DNA of 64,000 nt from Candidatus Dojkabacteria bacterium. GTDB lineage: Bacteria; Patescibacteriota; Dojkabacteria; SC72; JAHDCA01. A model generated the notes under the pieces. The model was given only the letters and a program-made list of their open reading frames with translations, did not search any database and was not told where the DNA came from. Position numbers and translations under genes: made by a program. Location: NCBI GenBank assembly GCA_030583845.1, contig CP129478.1, positions 1,930 to 65,929 on the forward strand. Reading direction: 5' to 3'. The first letter of the stretch is position 1; every line of letters starts with the position of its first letter. This document shows positions 50,410 to 64,000 of the stretch, piece after piece.

Positions 50410-51258
50410 CTACTTTGATGACCGTGCGACTGCGACTGTGAAAGCAGCTCTCGGATAGCGAATTTCATCACTTTTAGTCAGTCGATATGAGTATAGCTTG
50501 TCGTTTTGTGCCGATTCATAGGTGCAGATAGCAGTATCGTAGAAACTGCTGATCCCATACTTATCCCTCATCCTGTCCTTCACCCTTCTGACAAAATCAA
50601 ATCCTTTCTTCTCTTTATCTTCTACCTCCACACAATACTCTTCGATCCAATCTACGCTAGATGACATCTTCTCTATAAAATCTAACCCGTATTCATAATG
50701 CTGGGGACAGATATAAGGAAATATGTATACTTCCGCACGTGACATATTCTCAAGCGAAGCCCGGACAGAAAACAGATCCAGAACATCTTCATATATTCCA
50801 ACAAAAGCCTCCTTGGAGCCGACATGGATATACGCAAAGTGATCTGTGTCAGGATGAGCAATTACGATTATTGCGCAATCGGAAGGAGAAGTCATCACGC
50901 CTTGTCCGGTGAGCGATGTGAGAACGGCGTTAACGTTCAGCTCGTATAAGCCTATATCATCCTGCTGAGATTGACTGTTTCTTATAACTGCCTGAGACTC
51001 TTTGCCGAAGTGAATAAAGCCTGCTTCGAGAGGGCACTTCATTACAACAAATTCATCGGTGCCGACGAGGTTTGCTACCTTTGTACGCTTCTGTGCTATT
51101 AGTGGTTTTTCTTCCTCGTTCTTTGCAAGCTTCTCTGACATGTTTCCCCACTTACCATTATCATAGGTAGCAAGGTTGTTAATGCCGAACTGCTCTTTAA
51201 GTCTAGGAAAAAACAGAATACCGTTTTCAGAATCGAGCTCGTAATTTTGCTGCATCAA
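50410..51258 (-). CDS. YfiH/PgeF-like (DUF152, purine-nucleoside-phosphorylase/laccase-domain) protein, putative peptidoglycan editing factor; apparent TTG start
   Basis: SPSDCAIIVIA and AYIHVGSKEAFVGI resemble the T-x-DC..[IV] and A-x-H-x-GW-[RK] signature blocks of the family. Confidence 0.5.
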   Translation of the reverse strand: MMQQNYELDSENGILFFPRLKEQFGINNLATYDNGKWGNMSEKLAKNEEEKPLIAQKRTKVANLVGTDEFVVMKCPLEAGFIHFGKESQAVIRNSQSQQDDIGLYELNVNAVLTSLTGQGVMTSPSDCAIIVIAHPDTDHFAYIHVGSKEAFVGIYEDVLDLFSVRASLENMSRAEVYIFPYICPQHYEYGLDFIEKMSSSVDWIEEYCVEVEDKEKKGFDFVRRVKDRMRDKYGISSFYDTAICTYESAQNDKLYSYRLTKSDEIRYPRAAFTVAVARSSK

Positions 51259-51261
51259 GGA

Positions 51262-51447
51262 TTACTTCTCTTCTTCGATTATCTCGACTTCAACTTTCTT
51301 AGTGCCGTTCTCATCCTGGCCAACAGATACAACTTCTAGCTCTGTACCACAGACAGAACACTCCAATATTTCACCTACTGAATACTCCTTATCCTCTAAT
51401 ACGATTTCGTTGCCACACTCTGGGCACACAATTTTTGTGTTATCCAT
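51262..51447 (-). CDS. LysW/ArgW-like zinc-ribbon amino-group carrier protein homolog with acidic C-tail (ends EVEIIEEEK)
   Basis: 61 aa; CPECGNEIVLED...GEILECSVCGTELEVV closely parallels the LysW core CPECGAEL.LE..ELGE...C..CGAELEVV. Confidence 0.55.
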   Translation of the reverse strand: MDNTKIVCPECGNEIVLEDKEYSVGEILECSVCGTELEVVSVGQDENGTKKVEVEIIEEEK

Positions 51448-51495: not shown

Positions 51496-52452
51496 ATGAA
51501 GGTGACAATGTCCATTTGGAAATATGCTGAACAGTACAACCCGATAGTAGATATCGCTGCCAGGATTGAAAATAATGCCGGCAATACAGAGCTAACCCAG
51601 ATTGAAATAGATGGTCATGCTGTCTGGCTTAAGCGAGAAGACCAGAACCCAACAGGCTCACACAAAGACCGCTCACTTGCATTTCAGCTTTCAGCACACA
51701 TTGCCGATGGTAGGCAGGATTTCGTTATATCCTCTTCTGGGAATTCTGTAATCAGCGCTGCAAATATTGTAAAGCAATTGCCGAATATCAAGCTGAATAT
51801 TTTCCTTTCCCCAAAGCTTTCAGAGAGCAAGAAAGCAAGATTAGAAAAATACCTCGGATCTGAGATTGACATATCTAGCAAAGAGCCTCAGCTGATTGGG
51901 AACATAACTCTGCACTTCAGTAGGCGAGCGCTTTCCGACTCATTCCGCTTCGCCAAGGAGCATGAATATGTCCTACTACGCGGATCACAAGATCCATATG
52001 CAGTCGAAGGGTTCAAGAGTCTTGGATATGAGCTACTAGAACAGCTGCCAGATATCACAGATATCTTTATGGCCACATCGAGCGGGACCACACTCGTCGG
52101 AGTGGCAAAGTCTATGACAAATGTAAGAGTACACGCTTGCCAATCTAGCTCGATAAATCTTATTGCTAGCCATTTTGATAGAAATTTTGTGCCATCTGAG
52201 AGCTCAATTGCAGACAGCATAGTTGATAGGGTTGGTCATAGGAAAGATGAGGCAATCAGGGTAATTAATGAATCAGAGGGTAGCGGCTGGGTTATCTCTG
52301 ATGAAGAGATAAATAACTCGCTCGAGATGTTAAAGATAAACGGAGTAAACAGCTCGGCGGAGGGAGCACTCGCACTCGCAGCCTACCGTAAAGCCATAAA
52401 TTCCGGATGGGAAATTAGCAAGCCTGTATGTATAATTTCGGGTATAGCCTAA
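51496..52452 (+). CDS. PLP-dependent enzyme of the tryptophan-synthase-beta fold (threonine-synthase/cysteine-synthase-like)
   Basis: LKREDQNPTGSHKDR Lys-containing PLP motif (compare LNPTGSFKDR); Gly-rich loop SSGNS. Confidence 0.8.
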   Translation: MKVTMSIWKYAEQYNPIVDIAARIENNAGNTELTQIEIDGHAVWLKREDQNPTGSHKDRSLAFQLSAHIADGRQDFVISSSGNSVISAANIVKQLPNIKLNIFLSPKLSESKKARLEKYLGSEIDISSKEPQLIGNITLHFSRRALSDSFRFAKEHEYVLLRGSQDPYAVEGFKSLGYELLEQLPDITDIFMATSSGTTLVGVAKSMTNVRVHACQSSSINLIASHFDRNFVPSESSIADSIVDRVGHRKDEAIRVINESEGSGWVISDEEINNSLEMLKINGVNSSAEGALALAAYRKAINSGWEISKPVCIISGIA

Positions 52453-52458
52453 CTGTCT

Positions 52459-54678
52459 ATGAGCAATACCACTCCTACAATTTTCTATATCTGCAATGAC
52501 CCAGAGCGAGCATTAGGTCCTGAAGCCTTTATTGATAACTACCACATTGTATGTATCGACAATAGCCCCTTGCTACCCTTGCTTAAAGCCAAGGGGATCA
52601 AGTATTTCTCGTTGGGCGAGACTCTCGGTGACAGCAACACAATTTTCCGCAATTCCAATAAACTGCTCGCTCGCAAAGAGGTGCAAGAGTATATTGCTGC
52701 AAATTGTGGAGACCAGGCTTATGTCCAGTTTTTTAAAATCGCCCCAAATATTGAGCGAGAATCGGCTAAATTGGGGTATACAGTATTAAACAGCTCTTCT
52801 GTTCTCAACCGTAAGTTCGAAAATAAGCTCTCACAGTATGAATCACTTTCTGGGTCGGTCAAGAATTTTCCTCCGACTGTCATAACCAAACTGTTGGATG
52901 CAAGCTACCAAGATCTCAGTGATGAGCTTGGTGAAGAGATGGTCGTTCAGTTTGACCGAGGACATACTGGCTCTGGGACTCTCTTCATTAAAAGCGAGTC
53001 GCAATTTAATGAAGTTAAAGATGAATTCCCAAACAGGGTCGCACGCATTGCGAAAATGATTGAAGGCGAGGCATGGACTCTGAATGCATGCGTTACAAGA
53101 TTCGGCATAGCATATGGTGGTCTTTGTAAGCAGATAACTGGAATACCAGAGCTAACTTCAGAAGCTGGCGGAACAGTTGGCAATGATTGGACTCAGGTAT
53201 CAGGTCTGAGCCAAGAAATGCTGCAGCAGATTGGCGAGCTGACCGAGCGGGTAGGAGAGCTTATGGCAGCGGATGGATATAAAGGACTATTTGGACTTGA
53301 CCTAATTATTACACCAAACAACGAGCTATATCTTATTGAAATCAATGCGAGGCAGCCTGCCTCAACAGGCATGCACAGCAAACTAATGCTTCAGTCCGAG
53401 CAGATCCCGCTTATTGCTTTCCATATAGCTGAGTTTGCTTTCAAAGGAGATGAGCAATATTTAGCCTTTATTAATCAGACATTTAATAAGCAGTTTAATG
53501 AAGATAAAATTTCACACTTCATTAAATCCCAAAACCACACTTCTTTAAGTTCATTAAATGCCTCTCAGATTATCATTCGCAACAAGTCAGGAAAGGATCT
53601 TAAAATTAAAGATGCAATTCCAGCAGGAGAATATAACAGCAGCTTGGAAAAAGCAGGCGAGAACTATTCAATCTCTGAGATAGATCGAGCAAACTTTATT
53701 CTACTTCACACTGCTCAAGGGCAAGAAGTATCACCTGGCAGCGAGATTGCCCGTATCCAAGCTCCAGAAAGCGTGCTAGACGGTGACAACCTCAAGCTGC
53801 AATATGCTAAGATGGTTGAGCTGATAAATCAGAACAACGACAATATGAGCAGCGAGCATAGATCAGAGCAACAAACAGCTCCCAGCATTACTTCGCAGGC
53901 CGAAAATATCGTAACGAAAGAGCTCCCAACCGAAGTTCAGCAATATATTCGTAAATACTTCGAGCTGCCTATAAACGGCGTACTCGTAACTACTCCATAC
54001 TTTAGAAATGTTAAAAGAGTTCGTGCGGAGCTTCGCGTCCTTGTAGGGAAGGGAACTCCGGAAGAGCTTGTTGAGGAGACGCTTATATACGCTAAACTTC
54101 GAGGATTCGAGCTTCGAGGCAAGACAGCGGAAGAGATTAGAGAGTTTATGATGGAGCAGGGACTGGGTGTAGACTGCTCAGCATTTGTGGCACACACATA
54201 TAATTACTACATGCGAGTAACAGAAAGCGGCTCGCTTTGGGCGAAGGCAAAGTACCCAAACAAAGGCTTCTATCGAAACTTCATCCGCATGCTCCGACCC
54301 GTCGAGAATCTCGGAGCCGAAATCTTAACCAATCTGGAGAATTGCGACAAGATTGAACTCGCTCAAATTGAGCCTGGTGATCTTATCCGCATGAAAGGGC
54401 TAAAGGGCGGCGATCATCTCGCACTGGTATATGCTGTTCAGTATGACCAAAGCGACAGGCCAACAAAGTTTACTTATGTCCACTCGATTTCAAGGTATGG
54501 CAAAGCAAATGGCGTAAGATTTGGAGATGTCATAATCAACGATGCAAACGGTGAATTAAAAGACCAGGAATGGCTGGAAAAAGATGAGGATGGGATATGC
54601 TGGACATTGAAAGAGCTGAAAACAGAATATGAAGATAACGGACTCAGACGACCTAAATTCAAGCCCAATGCCCGATAA
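52459..54678 (+). CDS. Bifunctional-looking fusion: N-terminal ATP-grasp ligase domain plus C-terminal NlpC/P60 (papain-like) amidase domain
   Basis: ATP-grasp: EEMVVQFDRGHTGSGTLFI and GYKGLFGLDLIITPNNELYLIEINARQ. NlpC/P60: GVDCSAFVAHTY (Cys) and GDLIRMKGLKGGDHLALVY (His), then YVHSI. Confidence 0.7.
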   Translation: MSNTTPTIFYICNDPERALGPEAFIDNYHIVCIDNSPLLPLLKAKGIKYFSLGETLGDSNTIFRNSNKLLARKEVQEYIAANCGDQAYVQFFKIAPNIERESAKLGYTVLNSSSVLNRKFENKLSQYESLSGSVKNFPPTVITKLLDASYQDLSDELGEEMVVQFDRGHTGSGTLFIKSESQFNEVKDEFPNRVARIAKMIEGEAWTLNACVTRFGIAYGGLCKQITGIPELTSEAGGTVGNDWTQVSGLSQEMLQQIGELTERVGELMAADGYKGLFGLDLIITPNNELYLIEINARQPASTGMHSKLMLQSEQIPLIAFHIAEFAFKGDEQYLAFINQTFNKQFNEDKISHFIKSQNHTSLSSLNASQIIIRNKSGKDLKIKDAIPAGEYNSSLEKAGENYSISEIDRANFILLHTAQGQEVSPGSEIARIQAPESVLDGDNLKLQYAKMVELINQNNDNMSSEHRSEQQTAPSITSQAENIVTKELPTEVQQYIRKYFELPINGVLVTTPYFRNVKRVRAELRVLVGKGTPEELVEETLIYAKLRGFELRGKTAEEIREFMMEQGLGVDCSAFVAHTYNYYMRVTESGSLWAKAKYPNKGFYRNFIRMLRPVENLGAEILTNLENCDKIELAQIEPGDLIRMKGLKGGDHLALVYAVQYDQSDRPTKFTYVHSISRYGKANGVRFGDVIINDANGELKDQEWLEKDEDGICWTLKELKTEYEDNGLRRPKFKPNAR

Positions 54679-55796
54679 TGGAGTGGCCAGCATTCACAAA
54701 TGATGTAAGGACAACAATCTACTACATATTGGTCTCTTTCGTAGTATCGATGCTGTTAGCTCCGATATTGATCAAAGTGCTGTACAAGTATAACGTAGTC
54801 AGGAAGACAGATAAGGACTTTGCTTCGATCGTCGGTGACAGATTCCTCAAGGCTGGTACACCGATCATGGGTGGTACTCTTGTAGTTTTCACGACCACAA
54901 TATTGACGATTCTATTCAACTGGAACGGGAATACATATATCCCTATCGCTGTACTCCTTATATCAGCTCTATTGGGAGGTATGGACGATCTGCTAAATAT
55001 CTTCGGCAGGAAGAGAGTAGTGAGAACAATTAAGAAACAGGTGCTATTGGCCAGAGTACATAAGAGTCCACTCCACCGACTCTATCTGTGGCTAACTCTC
55101 CCTTGGATTGCATACAAAAATATCTGGTATGCTCTTGGCTCCTACCCAGGCTCGGGTATCCATGCAGGAGAGAAAATAATTGTGCAGCTCATGGCAGGGG
55201 CATTTGTGGCTTGGTGGATCTACTCCAAGCTAGGATGGGATACCGTATGGTTCCCATGGATTGGCACGGTAGAGCTGGGCTACCTGATGCCTATTTTTAT
55301 CATTTTCACAGTTGTCTCAATGACAAATGCTGTAAATATCTCAGACGGCATGGATGGGCTATCGTCGGGTTTGCTGATATTCTCATTCATTGCATATTTA
55401 ATAATCTCACTCATCCAGGGGAATTTTGAGATCGCTACACTTATAGCAGTTGCAGTTGGCTCGTTGATCGCATATCTCTACTTCAATATTAAGCCTGCCA
55501 GATTTGAGATGGGGGATGTAGGGACATTAGCCTTGGGGGCTATGCTGGCTACAGTTGCATTCGCACTGGACAGACCTATTCTGCTGCCAGTTATTGGCTT
55601 TATGTTTGTTGCTGAGATAGGCTCATCGCTGATTCAGGGTGTGTATAGGAGAATCTTCGGCAAGAGGCTGTGGAAAATGGCGCCTTTGCATCTACACTAC
55701 CAGATCAAGGGCTGGTCAGAAGAAAAAGTTGTCATGAGGTTTTGGCTGATGGCAGGATTGTTCGCTCTGGTCGGAGTTTGGCTTAGCTTGATGTAG
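54678..55796 (+). CDS. mraY: Phospho-N-acetylmuramoyl-pentapeptide transferase MraY
   Basis: NAVNISDGMDGL and APLHLHYQ (APLHHHF-type) motifs. Confidence 0.9.
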   Translation: MEWPAFTNDVRTTIYYILVSFVVSMLLAPILIKVLYKYNVVRKTDKDFASIVGDRFLKAGTPIMGGTLVVFTTTILTILFNWNGNTYIPIAVLLISALLGGMDDLLNIFGRKRVVRTIKKQVLLARVHKSPLHRLYLWLTLPWIAYKNIWYALGSYPGSGIHAGEKIIVQLMAGAFVAWWIYSKLGWDTVWFPWIGTVELGYLMPIFIIFTVVSMTNAVNISDGMDGLSSGLLIFSFIAYLIISLIQGNFEIATLIAVAVGSLIAYLYFNIKPARFEMGDVGTLALGAMLATVAFALDRPILLPVIGFMFVAEIGSSLIQGVYRRIFGKRLWKMAPLHLHYQIKGWSEEKVVMRFWLMAGLFALVGVWLSLM

Positions 55797-55797
55797 A

Positions 55798-56823
55798 CTA
55801 GTAGCCGCGTCGCTTATTTTCCAGATTTTCATAAACCCTAGTGGCATGTGCGAAAGGGTAAACGATCATATCGTGGGCATGCACAGTCTGAACTTCACTC
55901 CCCCCAAACCCACGCTTAAACAGCGATAATCCATACCATGGATGCTCTTTCTGATTTTCGGGAGATACACCCCACAAGTTATGGATCCTCATGCCAGCAG
56001 ACTTGGCATACTTAATCGCTTCCCACTGTAGCAGGTATGTTGAAGGTACCTCACGAAACTGTGTGAGCGAGCCACTATGGTGGTATACAGAGTGGCCATT
56101 GAAATATATGAATATGGCAGCCGCGATCGGCTTATTCTCGTACAGTGTGAAAAACATACGAGCCATATTATCTTTCGCAAATAGCTCAAACTCTTTCTGG
56201 ATATAGTTGCGTGAGTAAGCAGTCCATTTATTTCTACTCACTGCATCCTGATAGATTTCCCAAAACTGTTCAAAATTCTCCATCCCTGTTGTGCTTACAA
56301 CTTTGATCCCCATTTTCTCAGCCTTCCTTATATAGTAGCGAGTATTTTTGCGCATCTCAGCGAGTAGCTGATCTTCACTTTTGGAAAGGTCGAGCACCAA
56401 TGTATTCTCGGCATCGACAGCATGTGCCGTGGCTGGGATAAGTTTGCACTCTTTCAATAGATCATTGTGTAATGGGGTATTAGAAAGCAGCGGGCTTATG
56501 CGGACAAACTGCCAAGCCCCTTTCACAGCCATCTTCTTTAGAAATTTCAATACGGCTGCAACAAGCTCTCTGTTCTCCCAATCTATCAATGGGGCATGCC
56601 TCAGGTGAAGATAGCGACCACGCAAGGCCTTTACATGTTTTATCGGGAGTAGACCGACTATTGAATCGTTACTGTCATATACAGCATAGTTATCGAAAAC
56701 AGCCCCAAGTGATTTTTCAAATTCACCATAGTTCCACGACAGGACAAATGTTGCATTATCAAATCTTGATGCAACTTCATCCCACTTCTCCTTATCATTT
56801 AGCTTCTTAATGCTATACATCAT
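55798..56823 (-). CDS. FemABX-family aminoacyl-tRNA-dependent peptidoglycan peptidyltransferase
   Basis: VYHHSGS, YLLQWEAIKYAK, LFKRGFGG family motifs. Confidence 0.8.
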   Translation of the reverse strand: MMYSIKKLNDKEKWDEVASRFDNATFVLSWNYGEFEKSLGAVFDNYAVYDSNDSIVGLLPIKHVKALRGRYLHLRHAPLIDWENRELVAAVLKFLKKMAVKGAWQFVRISPLLSNTPLHNDLLKECKLIPATAHAVDAENTLVLDLSKSEDQLLAEMRKNTRYYIRKAEKMGIKVVSTTGMENFEQFWEIYQDAVSRNKWTAYSRNYIQKEFELFAKDNMARMFFTLYENKPIAAAIFIYFNGHSVYHHSGSLTQFREVPSTYLLQWEAIKYAKSAGMRIHNLWGVSPENQKEHPWYGLSLFKRGFGGSEVQTVHAHDMIVYPFAHATRVYENLENKRRGY

Positions 56824-56865
56824 ACAATCGTTAGGTCACTAAACCTTATACATATCTCGTAAACA

Positions 56866-58125
56866 CTATTTAGCTTCAACGCCGTAATACTCCTCGATCT
56901 TATCAACTATATAATTCGCATCTTCAACTGAAGTATTAATATGTGTCGGTAAATTTATTATCCGGTCACACACTGCCTCGCCACTCGGGCATTCACCACT
57001 CTTGTAGCCTACTGCCTTCGGATTTGCTTCCTTTGGAGAGATTGGATCTGAATACCAGTCGCCAAGATAGATATGGTGGTCGCTCAAAAATGCCAACAGA
57101 TGCTCTTTCCTATATGCAAGAGCCGGGAACCTCAAAGGCGCAGCATTTTCATCTATGCTGAAGCTTTCGACATACTTATTACCTTTTAGCCGTGATTTGT
57201 AAACTTTAGCTATGCTGTCACGATGATAATTGAGTGCTTCAAGGTCAAGTAGCTGTAGGTATGCAAGCTTAGCCAACGCGTTGGGTAAAAGCCGCGGCAC
57301 CGAAGAGGGTAGTGTACCCGATTTCTCCTCAGGTGTAGTTGCTCGGGTCACCAGACCTAATGTCATAGATATTTTATGAAATAGCTTGGCAACCTTGGGC
57401 GAATACTTGTAGAAGAACTTAAACTTGCTCCAAAATATAGGGAAATTTAGCTCCTTCCATACCCACCATCTAGTCGGATGCTCAAGGTCCATGTAGAGAG
57501 CATCAACTTCATCTAGGTAATCGTTATTATTTAACACCAGGACTCCGCCATCAACACCGGAAATCGCCTTATCCCGCCCGAAGCTGAAAACAGCAGCATC
57601 ACCATATGTACCGATTAGTTTACCTCGATGCTTTGTCAGTAATGTATGGGTACAGTCTTCAAGCAGAACAATATTGTGCTTCTTAGCAAGCTTCGCAACA
57701 GCTTCTATCTCTCCTTGAACCCCCAATGTATGCTGATACACAATAACTTTTGTTTTTTCTGTAATCTTCTCAGCCAGACTTGCAACTGAGAATGCCAAAG
57801 TCTCAGGAGAAATATCGGCATATACAGGCTTGAAGCCCGCCCACACAGCTGGATTAACGGCTGCTATGCAGGTGAATCCTTGAAAAATTACCTGATCGCC
57901 ACGCTTCGGTTTTAACGCCTTAAAGAATTGATACATGGCGGATCTGGCGTAATTGTACACAAAGTACTCCCGATCATCACCATACTTCTCTGCAAACCAC
58001 TGCTCAACCAAGTAAGGGTATCCACCCTTCTTCCATTTCCATGGTTGGAAATAGATTTTCAGATTGGCGTGCATATCCTTCCTGCGTGTACTTGGGGAAT
58101 AGGATGTGTATATCAGCCTGTTCAT
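56866..58125 (-). CDS. DegT/DnrJ/EryC1/StrS-family PLP-dependent sugar aminotransferase
   Basis: GDQVIFQGFTCIAAVNP and FSFGRDKAISGVDGG (PLP Lys) motifs. Confidence 0.85.
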   Translation of the reverse strand: MNRLIYTSYSPSTRRKDMHANLKIYFQPWKWKKGGYPYLVEQWFAEKYGDDREYFVYNYARSAMYQFFKALKPKRGDQVIFQGFTCIAAVNPAVWAGFKPVYADISPETLAFSVASLAEKITEKTKVIVYQHTLGVQGEIEAVAKLAKKHNIVLLEDCTHTLLTKHRGKLIGTYGDAAVFSFGRDKAISGVDGGVLVLNNNDYLDEVDALYMDLEHPTRWWVWKELNFPIFWSKFKFFYKYSPKVAKLFHKISMTLGLVTRATTPEEKSGTLPSSVPRLLPNALAKLAYLQLLDLEALNYHRDSIAKVYKSRLKGNKYVESFSIDENAAPLRFPALAYRKEHLLAFLSDHHIYLGDWYSDPISPKEANPKAVGYKSGECPSGEAVCDRIINLPTHINTSVEDANYIVDKIEEYYGVEAK

Positions 58126-58889
58126 CTATTTTGACGGATGAAGTTATCGATCTCAATGAAGATGTTCTCTGGCTGGCTTATTGGCAGGCTATGGCCAACC
58201 CCTTGATAGATTTTGATCTTTGATCCTGAAATTTTTTCATTTATCATTACAGCCTCTTCGACTGGTGTGTACCTATCTTGGTCGCCCCACAAGATCAGTG
58301 TGGGCTTATTAATTTTCTCCAGTCGGTCAGTGAGATCCTGGGTAATAATCTTGCGATAGCTCTCCTCAAGCTTAGGATTTTTCAATGTATCGGAAAGTGG
58401 ATAGAAAATCTTGTAGTACAGCTTTCTAAGTGGGCGAGCCTTCTCTTTATACTGTTCATAGTTCGGTACTACTTTCTTGATAGTTGAGCTGGCTTTGCTC
58501 TCTTTTGGTGAGCGCCTAATTGCCGCCGCACAGAGGATAAGATTTTTGATAAGATCGGGCGACTCTGCTGAAATATATGCACCAAGCCCACCGCCAAATG
58601 AGTGTCCGAAATAGATTACCTCATGCAACCCGAGCGCGACAATAAATTTCCTCAAGAAAAGCGCATATTCTTCAACCCCCCATGTAGTAGTAGGCGCATC
58701 GGAGTTGCCAAACCCAGGTAGGTCGAGCAGGTAAGCTTTGTAGCGATACTTTGAAGCAGTTGAAAAAAGCCCCCTAAGACTTTCTACGCTCCCTCCCCAA
58801 CCATGAACAAACAGAATTGGGACTTGGGAACCAACAGCTCCCTCTGACTCTAGGTAATTGATTTTCAGGCCATCTACATCTATCTTCAT
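58122..58889 (-). CDS. Alpha/beta-fold hydrolase
   Basis: HGWGGS oxyanion region, GHSFGG nucleophile elbow; 4-bp overlap with upstream degT-like gene. Confidence 0.75.
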   Translation of the reverse strand: MKIDVDGLKINYLESEGAVGSQVPILFVHGWGGSVESLRGLFSTASKYRYKAYLLDLPGFGNSDAPTTTWGVEEYALFLRKFIVALGLHEVIYFGHSFGGGLGAYISAESPDLIKNLILCAAAIRRSPKESKASSTIKKVVPNYEQYKEKARPLRKLYYKIFYPLSDTLKNPKLEESYRKIITQDLTDRLEKINKPTLILWGDQDRYTPVEEAVMINEKISGSKIKIYQGVGHSLPISQPENIFIEIDNFIRQNR

Positions 58890-59038
58890 ATTTCCTCTGA
58901 TTATGCTATTTTAAGCCGAAACAGTAAAGCTCCTAGGGTTTACAGCAACGTTGTTATTTCGCCAATTATTCGTATAAATGGGTGTAACTGCCCAATGTGA
59001 TAAAATTAGCCAATAGCTTAAGTAAATACGAATAGCAA

Positions 59039-60310
59039 ATGAGCAAGTTACTCCCACAAAACCTGAAGAACAAAAAGCACCTCCTGACCTCGAAGTTTTA
59101 CCATAACTTCTATGGCAAGCCTTCAAAGCAGCTTAAAATAATCGGCGTCACTGGCACCGATGGTAAGACGACTACGAGCACTATTTTATATGAAATGTTG
59201 AAGCTGGCTGGCTACAAAGTTGGCCTTATCTCAACGATCAGCGCCAAGATAGGCAGCAAGGAGTATTCGACAGGATTTCATGTTACCTCGCCTAGTCCGA
59301 AAGATTTGCAAAAATTTCTGAAGGAGATGGTGAAAGAGGGATTGGAGTATGTGGTGTTGGAGACCACCTCACACGGATTGGATCAGTATAGAGTAGGGGG
59401 AGTACAGTATTGTGCTGCTGTTTTTACAAATGTAAGCCACGAGCATCTGGACTACCACAAAACATACGACAACTACCTCCAGACCAAGGCCCGGCTTATG
59501 GAGCTACTAGATAAAGATGGTTTTGCGGTGATAAATAAAGATGACCAGTCGTATGAGAAATTTGTCTCCAAGGCCAAAGCTCTCGGAATTGACATGATCG
59601 ATTACGGCTTTAGCGATGGAAGCGATATGAAGGGCGATAACCTACAACAGAATGGCAGGATGTCATTTAGAGCGACACTTCACTCGACAGATCAGAATAT
59701 TGAGCTAAATTTCGACACCAATCTTCAAGGGAAATATAACGCGCAGAATATCATGGCTGCAGCTGTTGCAGCATATGAGCTGGGAGCCGAGGTAGAAGCA
59801 ATCGAAAAAGCCGTGCACAATGTAAAAAGCCTTAAAGGCCGATGGGAAGTGTTGCAAGAGCACCCTTTCAAAGCGGTAGTTGATTTCGCACATACTCCAA
59901 ATGCACTGGAGAATGTGCTTTCATTTGCTCGCGCTGACAACAGAGAAGGGAAGCTAATCGTGGTATTCGGAAGCGCTGGACTACGCGATGTAACCAAAAG
60001 GCCATTGATGGGTGAGGCTGCCGGGAAGCATGCAGACTACACCATCCTAACCGCCGAGGATCCACGTGGAGAAAGTGTTACCTCTATTTCAAATATGATC
60101 GCAGAGGGTATTAAAAAGCATTCCGGGAAGTATGAAATAATCGAGGACAGGAAAGAGGCAATAGCCGCTGCCATAAAGATGGCAAAGAAAGGAGATACGG
60201 TGGTAGTCACAGGCAAAGGGCACGAAGAGAGCCTCAATCTAGATGGCAAAAGCGAAATTCCGTGGAGTGACCAGAAGGTGATGGGGGAGCTATTAAATTC
60301 TAAAAAGTAA
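59039..60310 (+). CDS. murE: Mur ligase family protein (MurE-like) lacking the canonical N-terminal domain
   Basis: IGVTGTDGKTTTS P-loop only 38 aa from the start; in-frame TAG 6 nt upstream of the ATG; C-terminal Mur-ligase domain present. Confidence 0.75.
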   Translation: MSKLLPQNLKNKKHLLTSKFYHNFYGKPSKQLKIIGVTGTDGKTTTSTILYEMLKLAGYKVGLISTISAKIGSKEYSTGFHVTSPSPKDLQKFLKEMVKEGLEYVVLETTSHGLDQYRVGGVQYCAAVFTNVSHEHLDYHKTYDNYLQTKARLMELLDKDGFAVINKDDQSYEKFVSKAKALGIDMIDYGFSDGSDMKGDNLQQNGRMSFRATLHSTDQNIELNFDTNLQGKYNAQNIMAAAVAAYELGAEVEAIEKAVHNVKSLKGRWEVLQEHPFKAVVDFAHTPNALENVLSFARADNREGKLIVVFGSAGLRDVTKRPLMGEAAGKHADYTILTAEDPRGESVTSISNMIAEGIKKHSGKYEIIEDRKEAIAAAIKMAKKGDTVVVTGKGHEESLNLDGKSEIPWSDQKVMGELLNSKK

Positions 60311-60313
60311 CGT

Positions 60314-61003
60314 ATGAGACTTCATTTCAAAGAGACTAAAAACGCTGATTATCAAAACTACGAGTTCCCGTATAAAGTGTATGCGACTCGAGAAGATAGC
60401 GATAGCGTGGAATCTATGTACGAGCAAGGCTTCCTTCAGACAAGGATTGAGAAAGAGTACTATTACTTAGCGCGTGGTGTAAGAATCAAGCTTGAAGATT
60501 TCGAGTTAAATAGTGAGAATCGCCGCATCTTGAGGAAGACCGAATATATGGAGATGGCAATCGCCAGCCTAAGAGATTTTGAATACGACCACACGATTGG
60601 GAAGTTCGCTAAAGATTATTACGATAGTCGTTTTGGTCCAAAGACTTTATCGCCTCAGAAGATGAAGTGGATTTTCACATCGGGTGCTTTTACCGATGTG
60701 CTTATCTTCCGTGACAAGAGCAATGGAGAGATCATCGGATATTGCCCGGTACTGATGACCAACGAGATTATGCACTACGCTTACCCGTTCTTCCAGCTAA
60801 GCTACATGGAGAAGAATCTTGGCATCGGCATGATGACAGCCGCTATCCAATATGCCCAGGAGAAAGGGTTGAAATATGTATACCTCGGCACATGCTACAG
60901 TGAGCAGGCATTATATAAGACACAGTTTGATGGCGTTCAGTGGTTTGACGGGGAGACATGGAGTGATGATCTTGAACAGCTAAAGCAGCTTTGCAGAAAT
61001 TAA
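60314..61003 (+). CDS. ATE/Bpt-family (arginyl-/leucyl-tRNA--protein transferase C-domain-like) protein, divergent, without N-terminal Cys motif
   Basis: HYAYPFFQLSYMEKNLGIG and YVYLGTCYSEQALYKTQF...W align with the Bpt blocks FYTFFEPE..LSLGT and WLYLGYQIDECPAMNYKVRF...W. 229 aa, close to Bpt length. Confidence 0.5.
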   Translation: MRLHFKETKNADYQNYEFPYKVYATREDSDSVESMYEQGFLQTRIEKEYYYLARGVRIKLEDFELNSENRRILRKTEYMEMAIASLRDFEYDHTIGKFAKDYYDSRFGPKTLSPQKMKWIFTSGAFTDVLIFRDKSNGEIIGYCPVLMTNEIMHYAYPFFQLSYMEKNLGIGMMTAAIQYAQEKGLKYVYLGTCYSEQALYKTQFDGVQWFDGETWSDDLEQLKQLCRN

Positions 61004-61020
61004 GTTAACGAAATTAGATA

Positions 61021-62457
61021 ATGAAGTCACAGCATATACATTTCATCGGAATCGCAGGATCGGCAATTGCTCCAGTAGCAATCTTGATGAAAAGCCTTGG
61101 GCATAAAGTGACCGGATCAGATGAAGCGGTATATGAGCCAGCCAGAACTCTCTTGAGCGAAGCTGGAGTAGAGTGGAGCGAGGGGTATGATGCAGAGAGA
61201 ATTAAGCCAGCAGACCTAGTGATACTTGGTGGTGCACCACTTATGGTTGATATCAACAACCCTGAGTTTCTTGCGGCCAAGGAGCTCGGCAAACAGCTTG
61301 AAGGATATGCATACCTGCTCAAACAGTATGTTGTAAAAGATGAGTCGATTGTTGTGACTGGGACATATGGCAAGACCACAACCTCGGCACTTGTAAATTG
61401 GATATTAGATGTAGCTGGTGAGAACCCTTCATTTATGATTGGTGGTAAGCCGCAAAATTTCGAAAATGGCGTGAGGATGACAGATTCAAAATACTCTTGC
61501 CTGGAAGGTGATGAGTATCTTGCGGTCTTTCACTTCGACGAGGAGCCACGCTTCCTCAGATATGCACCGAAATATGCGATCTTATCGGCAGCCAAGTGGG
61601 ACCATATAAATGTATATCCAACCGAGGATTCATATGTGGATGCCTTCAAGAAACTGCCTGCTGAGGTGAACAAGAATGGTGGCAAAATGTATGTGTGTGC
61701 CTCAGGCGAGAACAACGCCAAGGCAGTTGCTGAGTATGATGGTGAGCTCATTCTTTATATGCTCGAAGGGAGAGACTCATCGCAGTTCGAGGGACGAGAT
61801 GTGAACTACCTCGCTAAAGAGATCAGGACTGAGGGTGGCAAGACCCTTTTTACTGTTGAACTTAATGGAGGGATTATAGGAGATTTTGAGACAGAGCTGA
61901 TAGGAGATTTCAATGTTGAGAACTGCCTCGCTGCTATCACAATTACCCATGACCTTGGTATCGATATTGCAAAGATCAAAGAGGCAATTTCTACTTTTAA
62001 GGGCATAATGCGAAGGCTTGAGCTGAAGGGCTATACAAGTCGTGGCTCTTCCGTTATTGACGATTTCGCACACTCTGCGGTGAAAGCAAAAGCCACTCTC
62101 GACACGCTTCGAGTAACTTATCCGGACCGCAAGCTTATCTGCATCTACTACCCAAGACCATCAGAGCGCGAGGATAAGAATGTGCTTAGCTGGTACGAGG
62201 GAGCATTTGACTCTGCGGACCTGATGATACTCCCAAGAATCTTCGTCAAGAAATCTACCGAGAAAGAGCAGAGGATCTATGGGAAAGATTATATTGAGGT
62301 AATAAGCAAGACACAGCCTAATGCGCATTATGTGCCAAGGAACGAAGATATCGTGAAGCTGATAAAAGAGAATGAAGAGGACGAAAGTATCATTGTATTC
62401 ATGAGTGCCGGTGGCTGGGGAGACTTAATGGAGAGTTTGATAGACAAGAAGGCGTAA
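61021..62457 (+). CDS. murC: MurC/Mpl-family UDP-N-acetylmuramate--amino acid/peptide ligase
   Basis: HFIGIAGSAIAPVAILMKSLGHKVTGSDEAVYEP...VTGTYGKTTTSALV; layout especially Mpl-like. Confidence 0.85.
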   Translation: MKSQHIHFIGIAGSAIAPVAILMKSLGHKVTGSDEAVYEPARTLLSEAGVEWSEGYDAERIKPADLVILGGAPLMVDINNPEFLAAKELGKQLEGYAYLLKQYVVKDESIVVTGTYGKTTTSALVNWILDVAGENPSFMIGGKPQNFENGVRMTDSKYSCLEGDEYLAVFHFDEEPRFLRYAPKYAILSAAKWDHINVYPTEDSYVDAFKKLPAEVNKNGGKMYVCASGENNAKAVAEYDGELILYMLEGRDSSQFEGRDVNYLAKEIRTEGGKTLFTVELNGGIIGDFETELIGDFNVENCLAAITITHDLGIDIAKIKEAISTFKGIMRRLELKGYTSRGSSVIDDFAHSAVKAKATLDTLRVTYPDRKLICIYYPRPSEREDKNVLSWYEGAFDSADLMILPRIFVKKSTEKEQRIYGKDYIEVISKTQPNAHYVPRNEDIVKLIKENEEDESIIVFMSAGGWGDLMESLIDKKA

Positions 62458-62459
62458 GC

Positions 62460-63545
62460 TTACACAATCTCAACCTCTGAGCGGAGCTCAATATCGTAAG
62501 CTTTCTTAACGCTCTCTTTCATCTGCATTGCAAAGTCATATATCTCTTTGCCTGTTGCCTCTTTGTTCGTGACTATCACTAATGAATGTTCCTTAAAAGT
62601 GCCAACATTACCAACCCATTTCCCCTTCCAACCCTGTTCCTCTAACAACCGGCCAGCAGGGATTTTCACTATCTCATCATCTCCTGTATCTTTCCAGTCG
62701 TGCCTGCCATAATCCATCTTGGTTGTCGGATACTGCTGAAGCTCGTTTATCTTCTCAGAGAGCTCATGAAACTTGCTTACAGGGACAAATGGATTCGTGA
62801 AAAAACTGCCGCAAGTCCCATATTCAGAAAGAAGGGGGAGCTTAAATTGTCTCAGCTTTGTAACTGCGGTAGCCACATCTTTTGGAGTGTATGGCCGCTC
62901 AGCTGTTTCCTCAAGCCATTTCTCGAGTGACTCGTTCGGCTTCCTTGAGTGATAGCTAGTATCGAAGTGCGCCTCTTTGCTCAATCTCATACGAACCTTA
63001 GTGACAATATACTTATCACGCAAGCTTCCCTTGAAAGCACTCGACCGGTATGCGAAGTCACACTGCTCAGCAGTGAATGTCTCTACACCTCCAGTTTTGC
63101 GGTTTACGACCTCCACGCTGACACAGATCTGGTCAAAGCTTTGACCATACGCAGCGATATTCTGTACAGGAGCTGCACCAACTGTTCCTGGGATGTAGGC
63201 CATATTCTCTACGCCGCTCCAGCCCTGCTCGACAGCCCACATCACAAATTCAGGCCAATCTTCACCCGCACCGATATCTACGATAACCTCATTACTATCT
63301 TGGCTTGCCACCTCTTTGCCCATTAGCTCAACCTTCAGCACCAAACCGTCAAAATCCTGCGTGAAAAGTGTGTTACTACCCCGGCCTAATATGAACCATT
63401 TCTGGCTCTTTAGCTCATCAATCGTTAAGAGTTCTTGAATATCCTCGACACTCTCTACCTTAGCGAAATATTTAGCGCTGACATCAACCGCGAATGTGTT
63501 GTACTCCTTTAGAGGGATGTTCTTCTCAAGCTTCATAGTCGGCAA
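62460..63545 (-). CDS. murB: UDP-N-acetylenolpyruvoylglucosamine reductase MurB (FAD-binding), complete
   Basis: N-terminal FAD-binding PCMH motifs (ILGRGSNTLF) and C-terminal MurB domain (GTCGSFFTNP). Confidence 0.85.
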   Translation of the reverse strand: MPTMKLEKNIPLKEYNTFAVDVSAKYFAKVESVEDIQELLTIDELKSQKWFILGRGSNTLFTQDFDGLVLKVELMGKEVASQDSNEVIVDIGAGEDWPEFVMWAVEQGWSGVENMAYIPGTVGAAPVQNIAAYGQSFDQICVSVEVVNRKTGGVETFTAEQCDFAYRSSAFKGSLRDKYIVTKVRMRLSKEAHFDTSYHSRKPNESLEKWLEETAERPYTPKDVATAVTKLRQFKLPLLSEYGTCGSFFTNPFVPVSKFHELSEKINELQQYPTTKMDYGRHDWKDTGDDEIVKIPAGRLLEEQGWKGKWVGNVGTFKEHSLVIVTNKEATGKEIYDFAMQMKESVKKAYDIELRSEVEIV

Positions 63546-63571: not shown

Positions 63572-64000
63572 CTACTTGCCGTATATGGAAACTCCAGTAT
63601 CCAAGGTGATCCCAAATTTCTTCTCAACATTTTCTGCGATCTTCTTTGCGAAAGAGTAGACATCTTTTCCGCTTGCTTTACCGTAATTAACTACAATCGC
63701 AGGTGATTTAGCATAGATACCTACGTCTCCACTCCTCTCATTATCAAGCCCTGCCAACCTTATCAGCTGGCTTGCTGGCACCTGGATTTCGCCATTCTGC
63801 TCATTTAGTGCTTTCAACTCATACTTTTTCGCAAGCTTGTCATATAGCTCCTTTGGGATATATGGGCTCATAAAGAAGAAGCCAGAGGTTCCGATCTTGC
63901 CTAGCTCTGGGAACTCGTCATCGTAAATTCGCTTAATAATATTCGGGATATCTTGGAGTGTAGGATTCTTATAACCCATCTCTTCAGCTTTCTCTTTCAA
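63572..64000 (-). CDS. Second MurB-like gene, 3' portion only (N-terminus lies beyond the window edge)
   Basis: GTSGFFFMSPY...GLDNERSGDVGIYAKSPAIVVNYGKASGKDV..FGITLDTGVSIYG matches the MurB C-terminal domain. Confidence 0.7.
   Translation of the reverse strand: MKEKAEEMGYKNPTLQDIPNIIKRIYDDEFPELGKIGTSGFFFMSPYIPKELYDKLAKKYELKALNEQNGEIQVPASQLIRLAGLDNERSGDVGIYAKSPAIVVNYGKASGKDVYSFAKKIAENVEKKFGITLDTGVSIYGK

Follow-up and report, generated by a model that had tools for sequence, protein, structure and literature searches.

A cysteine-less relative of ATE1/Bpt transferases encoded between Mur ligase genes: a predicted aminoacyl-tRNA-dependent step in bacterial cell-wall synthesis

The 64,000-nucleotide stretch of Candidatus Dojkabacteria bacterium DNA considered here (contig CP129478.1; termed the window, with positions counted from its first letter) contains a cell-wall gene cluster in which all of the open reading frames (ORFs) lie where a sequence-only reading had placed them. 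The gene of interest (60314..61003, plus strand) encodes a 229-aa protein that, on the strength of an ATE_C profile match, an hhalign alignment to Bpt and an ATE1-like structural model, is predicted to be an aminoacyl-tRNA-dependent transferase. Both of its neighbours, also on the plus strand, encode Mur ligases as had been proposed. On its 5′ side is the gene for a 423-aa MurE-type ligase (59039..60310; TIGR01085, 424 bits) with matches to Mur_ligase_M and Mur_ligase_C only, and on its 3′ side is a gene (61021..62457) whose product scores 250.5 bits with the MurC model (cutoff 335) and 226.9 bits with the Mpl model (cutoff 389), and is termed MurC/Mpl-like. The stop codon of murE is 3 nts from the ATG of the Bpt-like gene, the stop codon of the latter is 17 nts from the start of the murC-like gene, and there is no terminator-like site in these gaps. 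The three genes are therefore taken to form one transcription unit. A divergent intergenic region sets this murE-side operon off from the mraY side of the cluster, and contigs that reach beyond the window add murA, mraZ, rsmH and ftsI.

Taken alone, the match of the 229-aa protein to PF04377 (ATE_C) is marginal, with 28.2 bits in a Pfam search against a gathering score of 25 (E 3.2e-6); other members of its family score from 21.8 to 40.6 bits. PF04376 (ATE_N) does not match it even at E<=10. Two canonical Bpt controls in the same search gave 76-82 bits with ATE_N and 132-150 bits with ATE_C. The homology has three independent supports. A profile built from 30 family members aligns with Acinetobacter baumannii Bpt in hhalign with a probability of 96.7% and an E value of 4e-10. 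Seven NCBIfam arginyltransferase models match the 229-aa protein with E values from 4e-13 to 5e-3. The AlphaFold model, whose mean pLDDT is 93.4, has human ATE1 (8tzv; E 5.7e-10, TM 0.73) as its best Foldseek match in the PDB, and the next matches are yeast ATE1, the C-domain of MprF and FemX, all of them aminoacyl-tRNA transferases. The protein is thus a genuine relative of ATE/Bpt, with a small N-terminal domain followed by an ATE_C GNAT domain. PF02388 (FemAB) gave no match to it at E<=10, and PF00583 (GNAT acetyltransferase) gave 19.5 bits, under its threshold of 20.7. Neither the single protein nor the family profile drew anything useful from PDB sequences, the profile yielding only weak GNAT acetyltransferase matches (E 0.07-0.3).

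The sequence-only reading had credited the protein with the C-terminal blocks of the transferases and had pointed to the absence of their N-terminal Cys motif. The absence is real, as the only Cys residues are at 144, 194 and 227 and the first 140 residues are free of Cys, but the restriction to C-terminal blocks did not hold. From residue 30 onward the protein aligns with Bpt in hhalign, and the aligned part takes in the GF..., R..R and S..RR motifs of the N-terminal domain, which is therefore there, though diverged and with its Cys lost. In the alignment of 30 diverse family members, Y201, K202, Q204, F205, R54, R57 and the segment S67-K75 are invariant. The pair Y201-K202 aligns with the ...NYK... 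motif of Bpt, with Y303-K304 of klAte1 and with K305 of FemX. K304 of klAte1 is a conserved active-site Lys, common to FemX as K305, and the same work describes a positively charged helix that, of all GNAT folds, only those of aminoacyl-tRNA transferases have (Kim et al. 2022, PMC9351520). The invariant helix S67-K75 (SENRRILRK) is basic and in the sequence alignment falls on the basic stretch that in Bpt lies before the GNAT domain; it would be a candidate for the tRNA-binding region, equivalent to the alpha3 helix of klAte1.

Judged by its sequence, the 229-aa protein is not a canonical Bpt. Its best score among the NCBIfam arginyltransferase equivalogs NF002341-NF002347 is 49.3 bits, where the cutoffs are 170-358, and the A. 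baumannii Bpt control gave 355 bits on the same models. In klAte1, zinc is held by Cys23, 26, 95 and 96, and recognition of an acidic residue at the N-terminus strictly requires R80 (Kim et al. 2022, PMC9351520). All four of the metal-binding Cys residues of ATE1/Bpt are lost in the family, and the position aligned with R80 is Leu in 25 of the 30 members and Val in the other five. This Arg is presumably the first R of GFRRSG, a placement that fits the spacing to Y87 and C95/96 (PMC9351520). In the window and 82 related loci, a tblastn search with A. baumannii Aat and E. coli ClpS, weak for a protein as small as ClpS, gave no aat or clpS match at E<0.3. The A. baumannii bpt gene adjoins aat. 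In a rough neighbour-joining tree the family and two canonical Bpt proteins are far from each other, with a long branch between them; a grouping with N-end-rule Bpt, which the sequence-only reading would have taken as a refutation, is thus not seen.

Relatives of the 229-aa protein are numerous. At E<=1e-3 they form 1244 clusters at 90% identity, and a profile search of 50%-identity clusters gave 191 clusters at E<=1e-30. A scan with one genome per GTDB species found a relative in at least 474 genomes, among them those of Dojkabacteria, Magasanikbacteria, Woesebacteria, many Verrucomicrobiota (Limisphaerales, Pedosphaera), KSB1 and Calditrichota. In the neighbour-joining tree the family splits into a clade of the candidate phyla radiation (CPR) and a non-CPR clade. 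Many of the relatives are labelled arginyltransferase by JGI and hypothetical or GNAT by NCBI; the NCBI label for the identical protein is 'GNAT family N-acetyltransferase'. As far as literature searches showed, the clade is undescribed, and its sequence features identify it as an unnamed Cys-less clade of the ATE1/Bpt superfamily. One fusion protein was seen: P0220 (L085 8001-10430; 809 aa) combines a Bpt-like domain with PPDK_N and PEP-utilizer mobile domains, and its 57-kb contig has a Mur ligase gene about 4.4 kb upstream. A second apparent fusion, P0264 (PurD-like plus Bpt-like), was not used, as alr is missing at its join, which suggests a deletion or an assembly chimera. Seeming tandem paralogues in L042 and L063 were rejected as a clustering artefact that arose from a stretch of N in L069; the neighbouring second gene is methyltransferase-like.

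Gene neighbourhoods were compared in 80 loci plus the window (81 in all; 16 CPR and 65 non-CPR), with ORFs called and clustered and representatives annotated. All 16 of the CPR loci have a Mur ligase gene within three genes of the Bpt-like gene, and some have MraY there also. The usual orders are murE-X-murC or mraY-X-murC, where X is the Bpt-like gene. The MurC/Mpl-like gene is the most constant neighbour, and murA, murB, murF, ftsI, a gene for a pyridoxal phosphate (PLP) enzyme and an ATP-grasp gene are often present as well. The setting differs in the non-CPR loci (Verrucomicrobiota, KSB1, Calditrichota), where by tblastn alr immediately precedes the Bpt-like gene, in the same orientation, in 44 of 65. 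Its product is a true alanine racemase (TIGR00492, 364 bits; cutoff 168). The two genes are for the most part 0-390 bp apart, and in four pairs they abut with zero gap. Identity among the alr proteins of these loci is only 52-90%, which shows that the arrangement has survived a long divergence. In 33 non-CPR loci a gene for a PurD-like ATP-grasp protein precedes alr and the Bpt-like gene (examples are L087 7146-8495 and L068 7434-8726). This protein gives 108 bits on the PurD model, for which the cutoff is 288, has a mean column identity of 70% within the group and is probably not the housekeeping PurD. A small ORF between the PurD-like gene and alr in L087 proved not to be conserved. Orthology of the ATP-grasp partners of the CPR and non-CPR clades was considered and rejected (hhalign E 0.07). 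Association with cell-wall genes, suggested from one genome, thus holds well beyond it. Just upstream of mraZ in two of the CPR cell-wall clusters (L008 1269-2552, L037 720-2138) is a class II aminoacyl-tRNA synthetase gene; the products, of 427-472 aa, have tRNA-synt_2b and HGTP anticodon domains and a zinc-ribbon-like insert.

The catalytic features and, it seems, those of the tRNA type are kept, the features for an N-degron acceptor are lost, and the synteny is with cell-wall genes; from this the 229-aa protein has most likely shifted from protein N-termini to a cell-wall precursor. In known cell-wall bridges, D-amino acids are added by ATP-grasp ligases, and Gly or L-amino acids by the tRNA-dependent GNAT-fold Fem enzymes (PMC2922099). 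With moderate confidence, the Bpt-like enzyme is proposed to be an aminoacyl-tRNA-dependent transferase acting on a peptidoglycan precursor. It would take an amino acid from aminoacyl-tRNA and pass it to a free amino group of the precursor, or of a building block for it, as FemABX enzymes do. The donor side-chain pocket is formed by S255, S273, E277 and Y289 in klAte1 and by A, A, Q and L at the same positions in Bpt (PMC9351520). In the family these positions appear to be Y155 (invariant), M173, A177 and V/L/I189, on a mapping made by hhalign sequence alignment at 21% identity. Such a pocket would be neutral and probably small, which would rule out Arg as the donor and favour a small neutral amino acid. 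Alanine is the first guess, since the pocket has this look and each of the constant neighbours, MurC in the CPR and alanine racemase elsewhere, acts on alanine. Candidate acceptors would be the free amine of the diamino acid at position 3 of the stem, or that of a D-amino acid added by the neighbouring ATP-grasp ligase.

Several points weigh against this proposal, beginning with the low identity at which the pocket was mapped. Both donor and acceptor are read from alignment and gene neighbourhood. In 26 of the 81 loci there is no cell-wall gene within three genes of the Bpt-like gene by crude ORF calling; as tblastn places alr just 5′ of the gene in several of them, 26 is an overestimate. The alr gene is itself a housekeeping gene, and its adjacency could reflect a link other than to the wall. 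The MurE of the window keeps an ...EDPR motif. A ...DPR motif is typical of MurE enzymes that add diaminopimelate (DAP), and branched stem peptides are uncommon in DAP-type walls. Finally, there is no orthology between the ATP-grasp partners of the CPR and non-CPR clades.

The mraY side of the cluster has features of its own. The MraY-family transferase gene (54678..55796, plus strand; PF00953) scores 169 bits with TIGR00445, under the cutoff of 192, and the N-terminal region of its product is long; in L005 there are two genes of the MraY family (at 1984 and 15192; 365 and 342 aa) and another is in L008 at 13774. It is preceded on the plus strand by genes for a 739-aa ATP-grasp protein (52459..54678; PF02655, E 1.5e-8), the C-terminal half of which has a sub-threshold match to NLPC_P60 (E 0.004), and for a fold-type II PLP enzyme (51496..52452; PF00291, E 2e-36). 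On the minus strand are genes for a LysW-like zinc-ribbon mini-protein of 61 aa with an acidic ...EEEK C-terminus (51262..51447; PF21344, 45.6 bits, gathering score 27) and, at the cluster edge, for a YfiH/PgeF-type protein (Cu-oxidase_4; 50410..51258; PF02578, E 2e-18). The YfiH/PgeF family includes the E. coli peptidoglycan editing factor. At the other end of the window the minus strand has two murB genes one after the other, paralogues of 358 and 340 aa. The 62460..63545 copy gives 348 bits with NF000755; the 63572..64000 copy has its 5′ part beyond the window end, and the length of 340 aa is that in L083 (13259-14281).

Counterparts of these genes recur in the CPR. LysW-like mini-proteins of 50-66 aa, with the tail ...E(E/G)K, are encoded in 11 CPR loci and in L088, beside the gene for the PLP enzyme or for MurE. 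The gene is usually divergent and upstream of that for the PLP enzyme, and once it is directly upstream of murE-X-murC. It is present at L001 8483-8662, L008 16119-16301, L032 13700-13873, L037 12808-12960, L039 3682-3846, L042 12748-12915, L044 13549-13713, L063 14339-14539, L066 11989-12150, L069 13001-13168 and L088 12061-12222, and is absent from all of the non-CPR loci examined. The tail of canonical LysW ends in Glu, whereas the tail here ends in Lys. The PLP-enzyme gene is present in 12 CPR loci, and the profile of its family fits ThrC, serine dehydratases and Ser/Asp racemases to much the same degree. The ATP-grasp protein is of an unclassified ATP-grasp_3 type. Its ATP-grasp and NlpC/P60-like halves are elsewhere in the CPR encoded by adjacent separate genes (about 400-470 aa and about 230-260 aa), and the gene at that position in L088 encodes 563 aa with a NUDIX domain. 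Together the LysW-like, ATP-grasp and NlpC/P60-like genes resemble an amino-group-carrier pathway.

The Mur ligases of these loci are also unusual. In Dojkabacteria-type loci MurE lacks its N-terminal domain, with matches that start at model positions 66-92 (67 in the window, where there are only 149 bp upstream of murE); further short forms are at L002 8458-9837, L005 7674-8972 and L008 6814-8043. In the Woesebacteria locus L037 MurE is full length. The N-terminal domain of MurE binds the UDP part of the substrate. The ligase encoded 3′ of the Bpt-like gene has approximately equal MurC and Mpl scores, under both cutoffs, in the window, L005, L008, L032 and L037 (Mpl 242 and MurC 241.5 in the last). 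By tblastn with MurE, MurC and MurF the window has two Mur ligases only, and MurD was not found among the 10 Mur ligases classified in CPR loci. Since ftsW and murG are also missing from the 20-kb stretches, the usual murD-ftsW-murG block is probably elsewhere in the genome, and a bypass of MurD is not claimed.

Between the two sides of the cluster are three minus-strand genes that form an operon of their own, from 58889 down to 55798. Its first gene, divergent from murE, encodes an alpha/beta-fold hydrolase (58122..58889; PF00561, E 1e-30) and overlaps by 4 nts that for a DegT/DnrJ/EryC1-type sugar aminotransferase (56866..58125; PF01041, E 1.4e-52). The last encodes a clear FemAB protein of 341 aa (55798..56823; PF02388, E 1.3e-34, 120.1 bits, gathering score 24), with 39.6 bits on the NCBIfam FemX equivalog (cutoff 500) and 55 bits on its best NCBIfam model, that for PEP-CTERM FemAB. 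The co-occurrence of FemABX-like and ATE/Bpt-like proteins in one cell-wall cluster, which drew attention to this DNA, is thus real. The roles first imagined for the neighbours have fared less well. A FemAB gene is within 10 kb of a family member in just two of the 81 loci, the window and L005, and DegT is near the Bpt-like gene in the same two. As companions of the Bpt-like gene, these two and the hydrolase are confined to Dojkabacteria-type loci, the window and one or two closely related ones. These three are lineage-specific neighbours outside the conserved module, and the idea that DegT and the hydrolase belong to it is not sustained. The recruitment of a Bpt-like protein to the cell wall gains comparative support from synteny, but the particular role suggested for it in the sequence-only reading, of adding a second bridge residue in cooperation with FemAB, does not.

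Other explanations for the 229-aa protein have to be set beside its proposed action on a peptidoglycan precursor. That it is an ordinary N-end-rule Bpt, which leucylates protein N-termini and is among cell-wall genes by chance, is scarcely credible. Membership of the ATE/Bpt superfamily and a gene for a ClpC/ClpB-type ATPase about 10 kb upstream would suit such an enzyme; the score of 49 bits where a real Bpt gives 355, the lack of an ATE_N match, Leu or Val for R80 in 30 of 30 members, the failure to detect aat or clpS and the conserved mur/alr synteny would not. It is also very unlikely that the use of aminoacyl-tRNA has been lost, leaving a GNAT acyltransferase of the acyl-CoA type or a non-catalytic partner of a Mur ligase. 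The NCBI label, the near-threshold PF00583 score and the weak acetyltransferase hits of the profile in PDB searches point that way. However, every structural neighbour is a tRNA-dependent transferase, neither the Tyr-Lys dyad nor the basic helix varies within the family, and at G172, which would be the second Gly of an acetyl-CoA loop, 13 of the 30 members have Phe.

Closer to the proposal are readings in which tRNA-dependent transfer is kept and the acceptor differs. A target other than peptidoglycan, be it a lipid, another envelope polymer, a small metabolite or a specific protein, is unlikely. The fold is also like that of the lipid aminoacylases MprF and PGS, the only wall link in the non-CPR loci is alr, with other neighbours (Dus, ROK kinase, histidine kinase) unrelated to the wall, and the best model for the FemAB neighbour is of an exopolysaccharide type; against this, genes for Mur ligases or MraY closely surround it in each of the CPR loci, and there is no membrane domain in the 229 aa. 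Somewhat less unlikely, though still doubtful, is that the enzyme makes a building block: it would take an L-amino acid from tRNA and join it to a D- or non-standard amino acid, or to a dipeptide, that is either free or bound to a carrier. The ATP-grasp ligase and PLP enzyme, and in the CPR the LysW-like carrier, would then be its partners, and a Mur ligase (for instance one like MurC/Mpl) would install the product. Conservation of the LysW-like zinc ribbon, recurrence of ATP-grasp and NlpC/P60-like genes, the even MurC/Mpl scores of the downstream ligase and the short MurE of Dojkabacteria-type loci fit with this, as do the PLP racemase and ATP-grasp neighbours that the other clade again has, and the joining of a Bpt-like domain to the ATP-grasp-type PPDK_N domain in P0220. 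Opposed to it are the absence of a LysW-like gene from every non-CPR locus, ATP-grasp families that in the two clades are unrelated beyond their fold, and the full-length MurE of L037. An extension of the same idea is a long shot: the CPR stem peptide would be partly assembled off the nucleotide by way of the LysW-like carrier, the ATP-grasp and PLP enzymes and a Bpt-like step, with an Mpl-like ligase installing the preformed peptide, an N-terminally short MurE acting on a nucleotide-free substrate and at least one classical Mur step bypassed.

Four known systems invite comparison with the 229-aa protein. With Bpt/ATE1 it shares superfamily, two-part fold, Tyr-Lys pair, N-terminal Arg pair and, as far as the sequence alignment shows, the basic S..RR helix; it differs in its identity of just 20-26% to Bpt, in its mur/alr rather than aat context, in the make-up of the donor pocket, and in being without the four Zn/Fe-S Cys, an ATE_N match and the Arg for an acidic N-terminus. 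The proposed working analogue is FemX/FemABX/MurM, for which aminoacyl-tRNA is the donor and the amine of a cell-wall precursor the acceptor; its GNAT-type fold is related, its catalytic Lys has a counterpart in the 229-aa protein, and a true FemAB representative is encoded 3.5 kb from the Bpt-like gene. However, Fem proteins are double-GNAT, whereas the 229-aa protein has a single GNAT and a small N-terminal domain without a PF02388 match, and its model is nearer to ATE1 (TM 0.73) than to FemX (TM approximately 0.5). The C-domain of MprF/aminoacyl-phosphatidylglycerol synthase is likewise of a tRNA-dependent GNAT-type fold (Foldseek E approximately 1e-6), but that match covers about 155-200 residues, and here there is neither a flippase domain nor lipid-synthesis genes nearby. 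Enterococcal side-chain synthesis uses the D-aspartate ligase Asl(fm) with a racemase. A racemase-type PLP enzyme and an ATP-grasp ligase by cell-wall genes recall that system; the ATP-grasp here is PurD-like (non-CPR) or of ATP-grasp_3 type (CPR), and the likeness is one of neighbourhood.

To our knowledge, the tRNA-dependent steps of cell-wall synthesis are those of Fem-type enzymes, and ATE1/Bpt are known as N-degron taggers of proteins. The present family is a third lineage, Bpt-like and Cys-less, that is fixed in cell-wall clusters of at least 474 species of the CPR, Verrucomicrobiota, KSB1 and Calditrichota. The step that it is predicted to carry out, tRNA-dependent transfer in cell-wall synthesis, would be of a known kind, drawn here from the ATE/Bpt lineage, and widespread. 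If the prediction is right, the ATE/Bpt family gains a new function, and a wall modification that has not been sought is to be expected in largely uncultured groups. There would then be a simple biochemical handle on the cell-wall chemistry of the CPR, and the finding would bear on how N-degron and cell-wall transferases diverged from a common ancestor.

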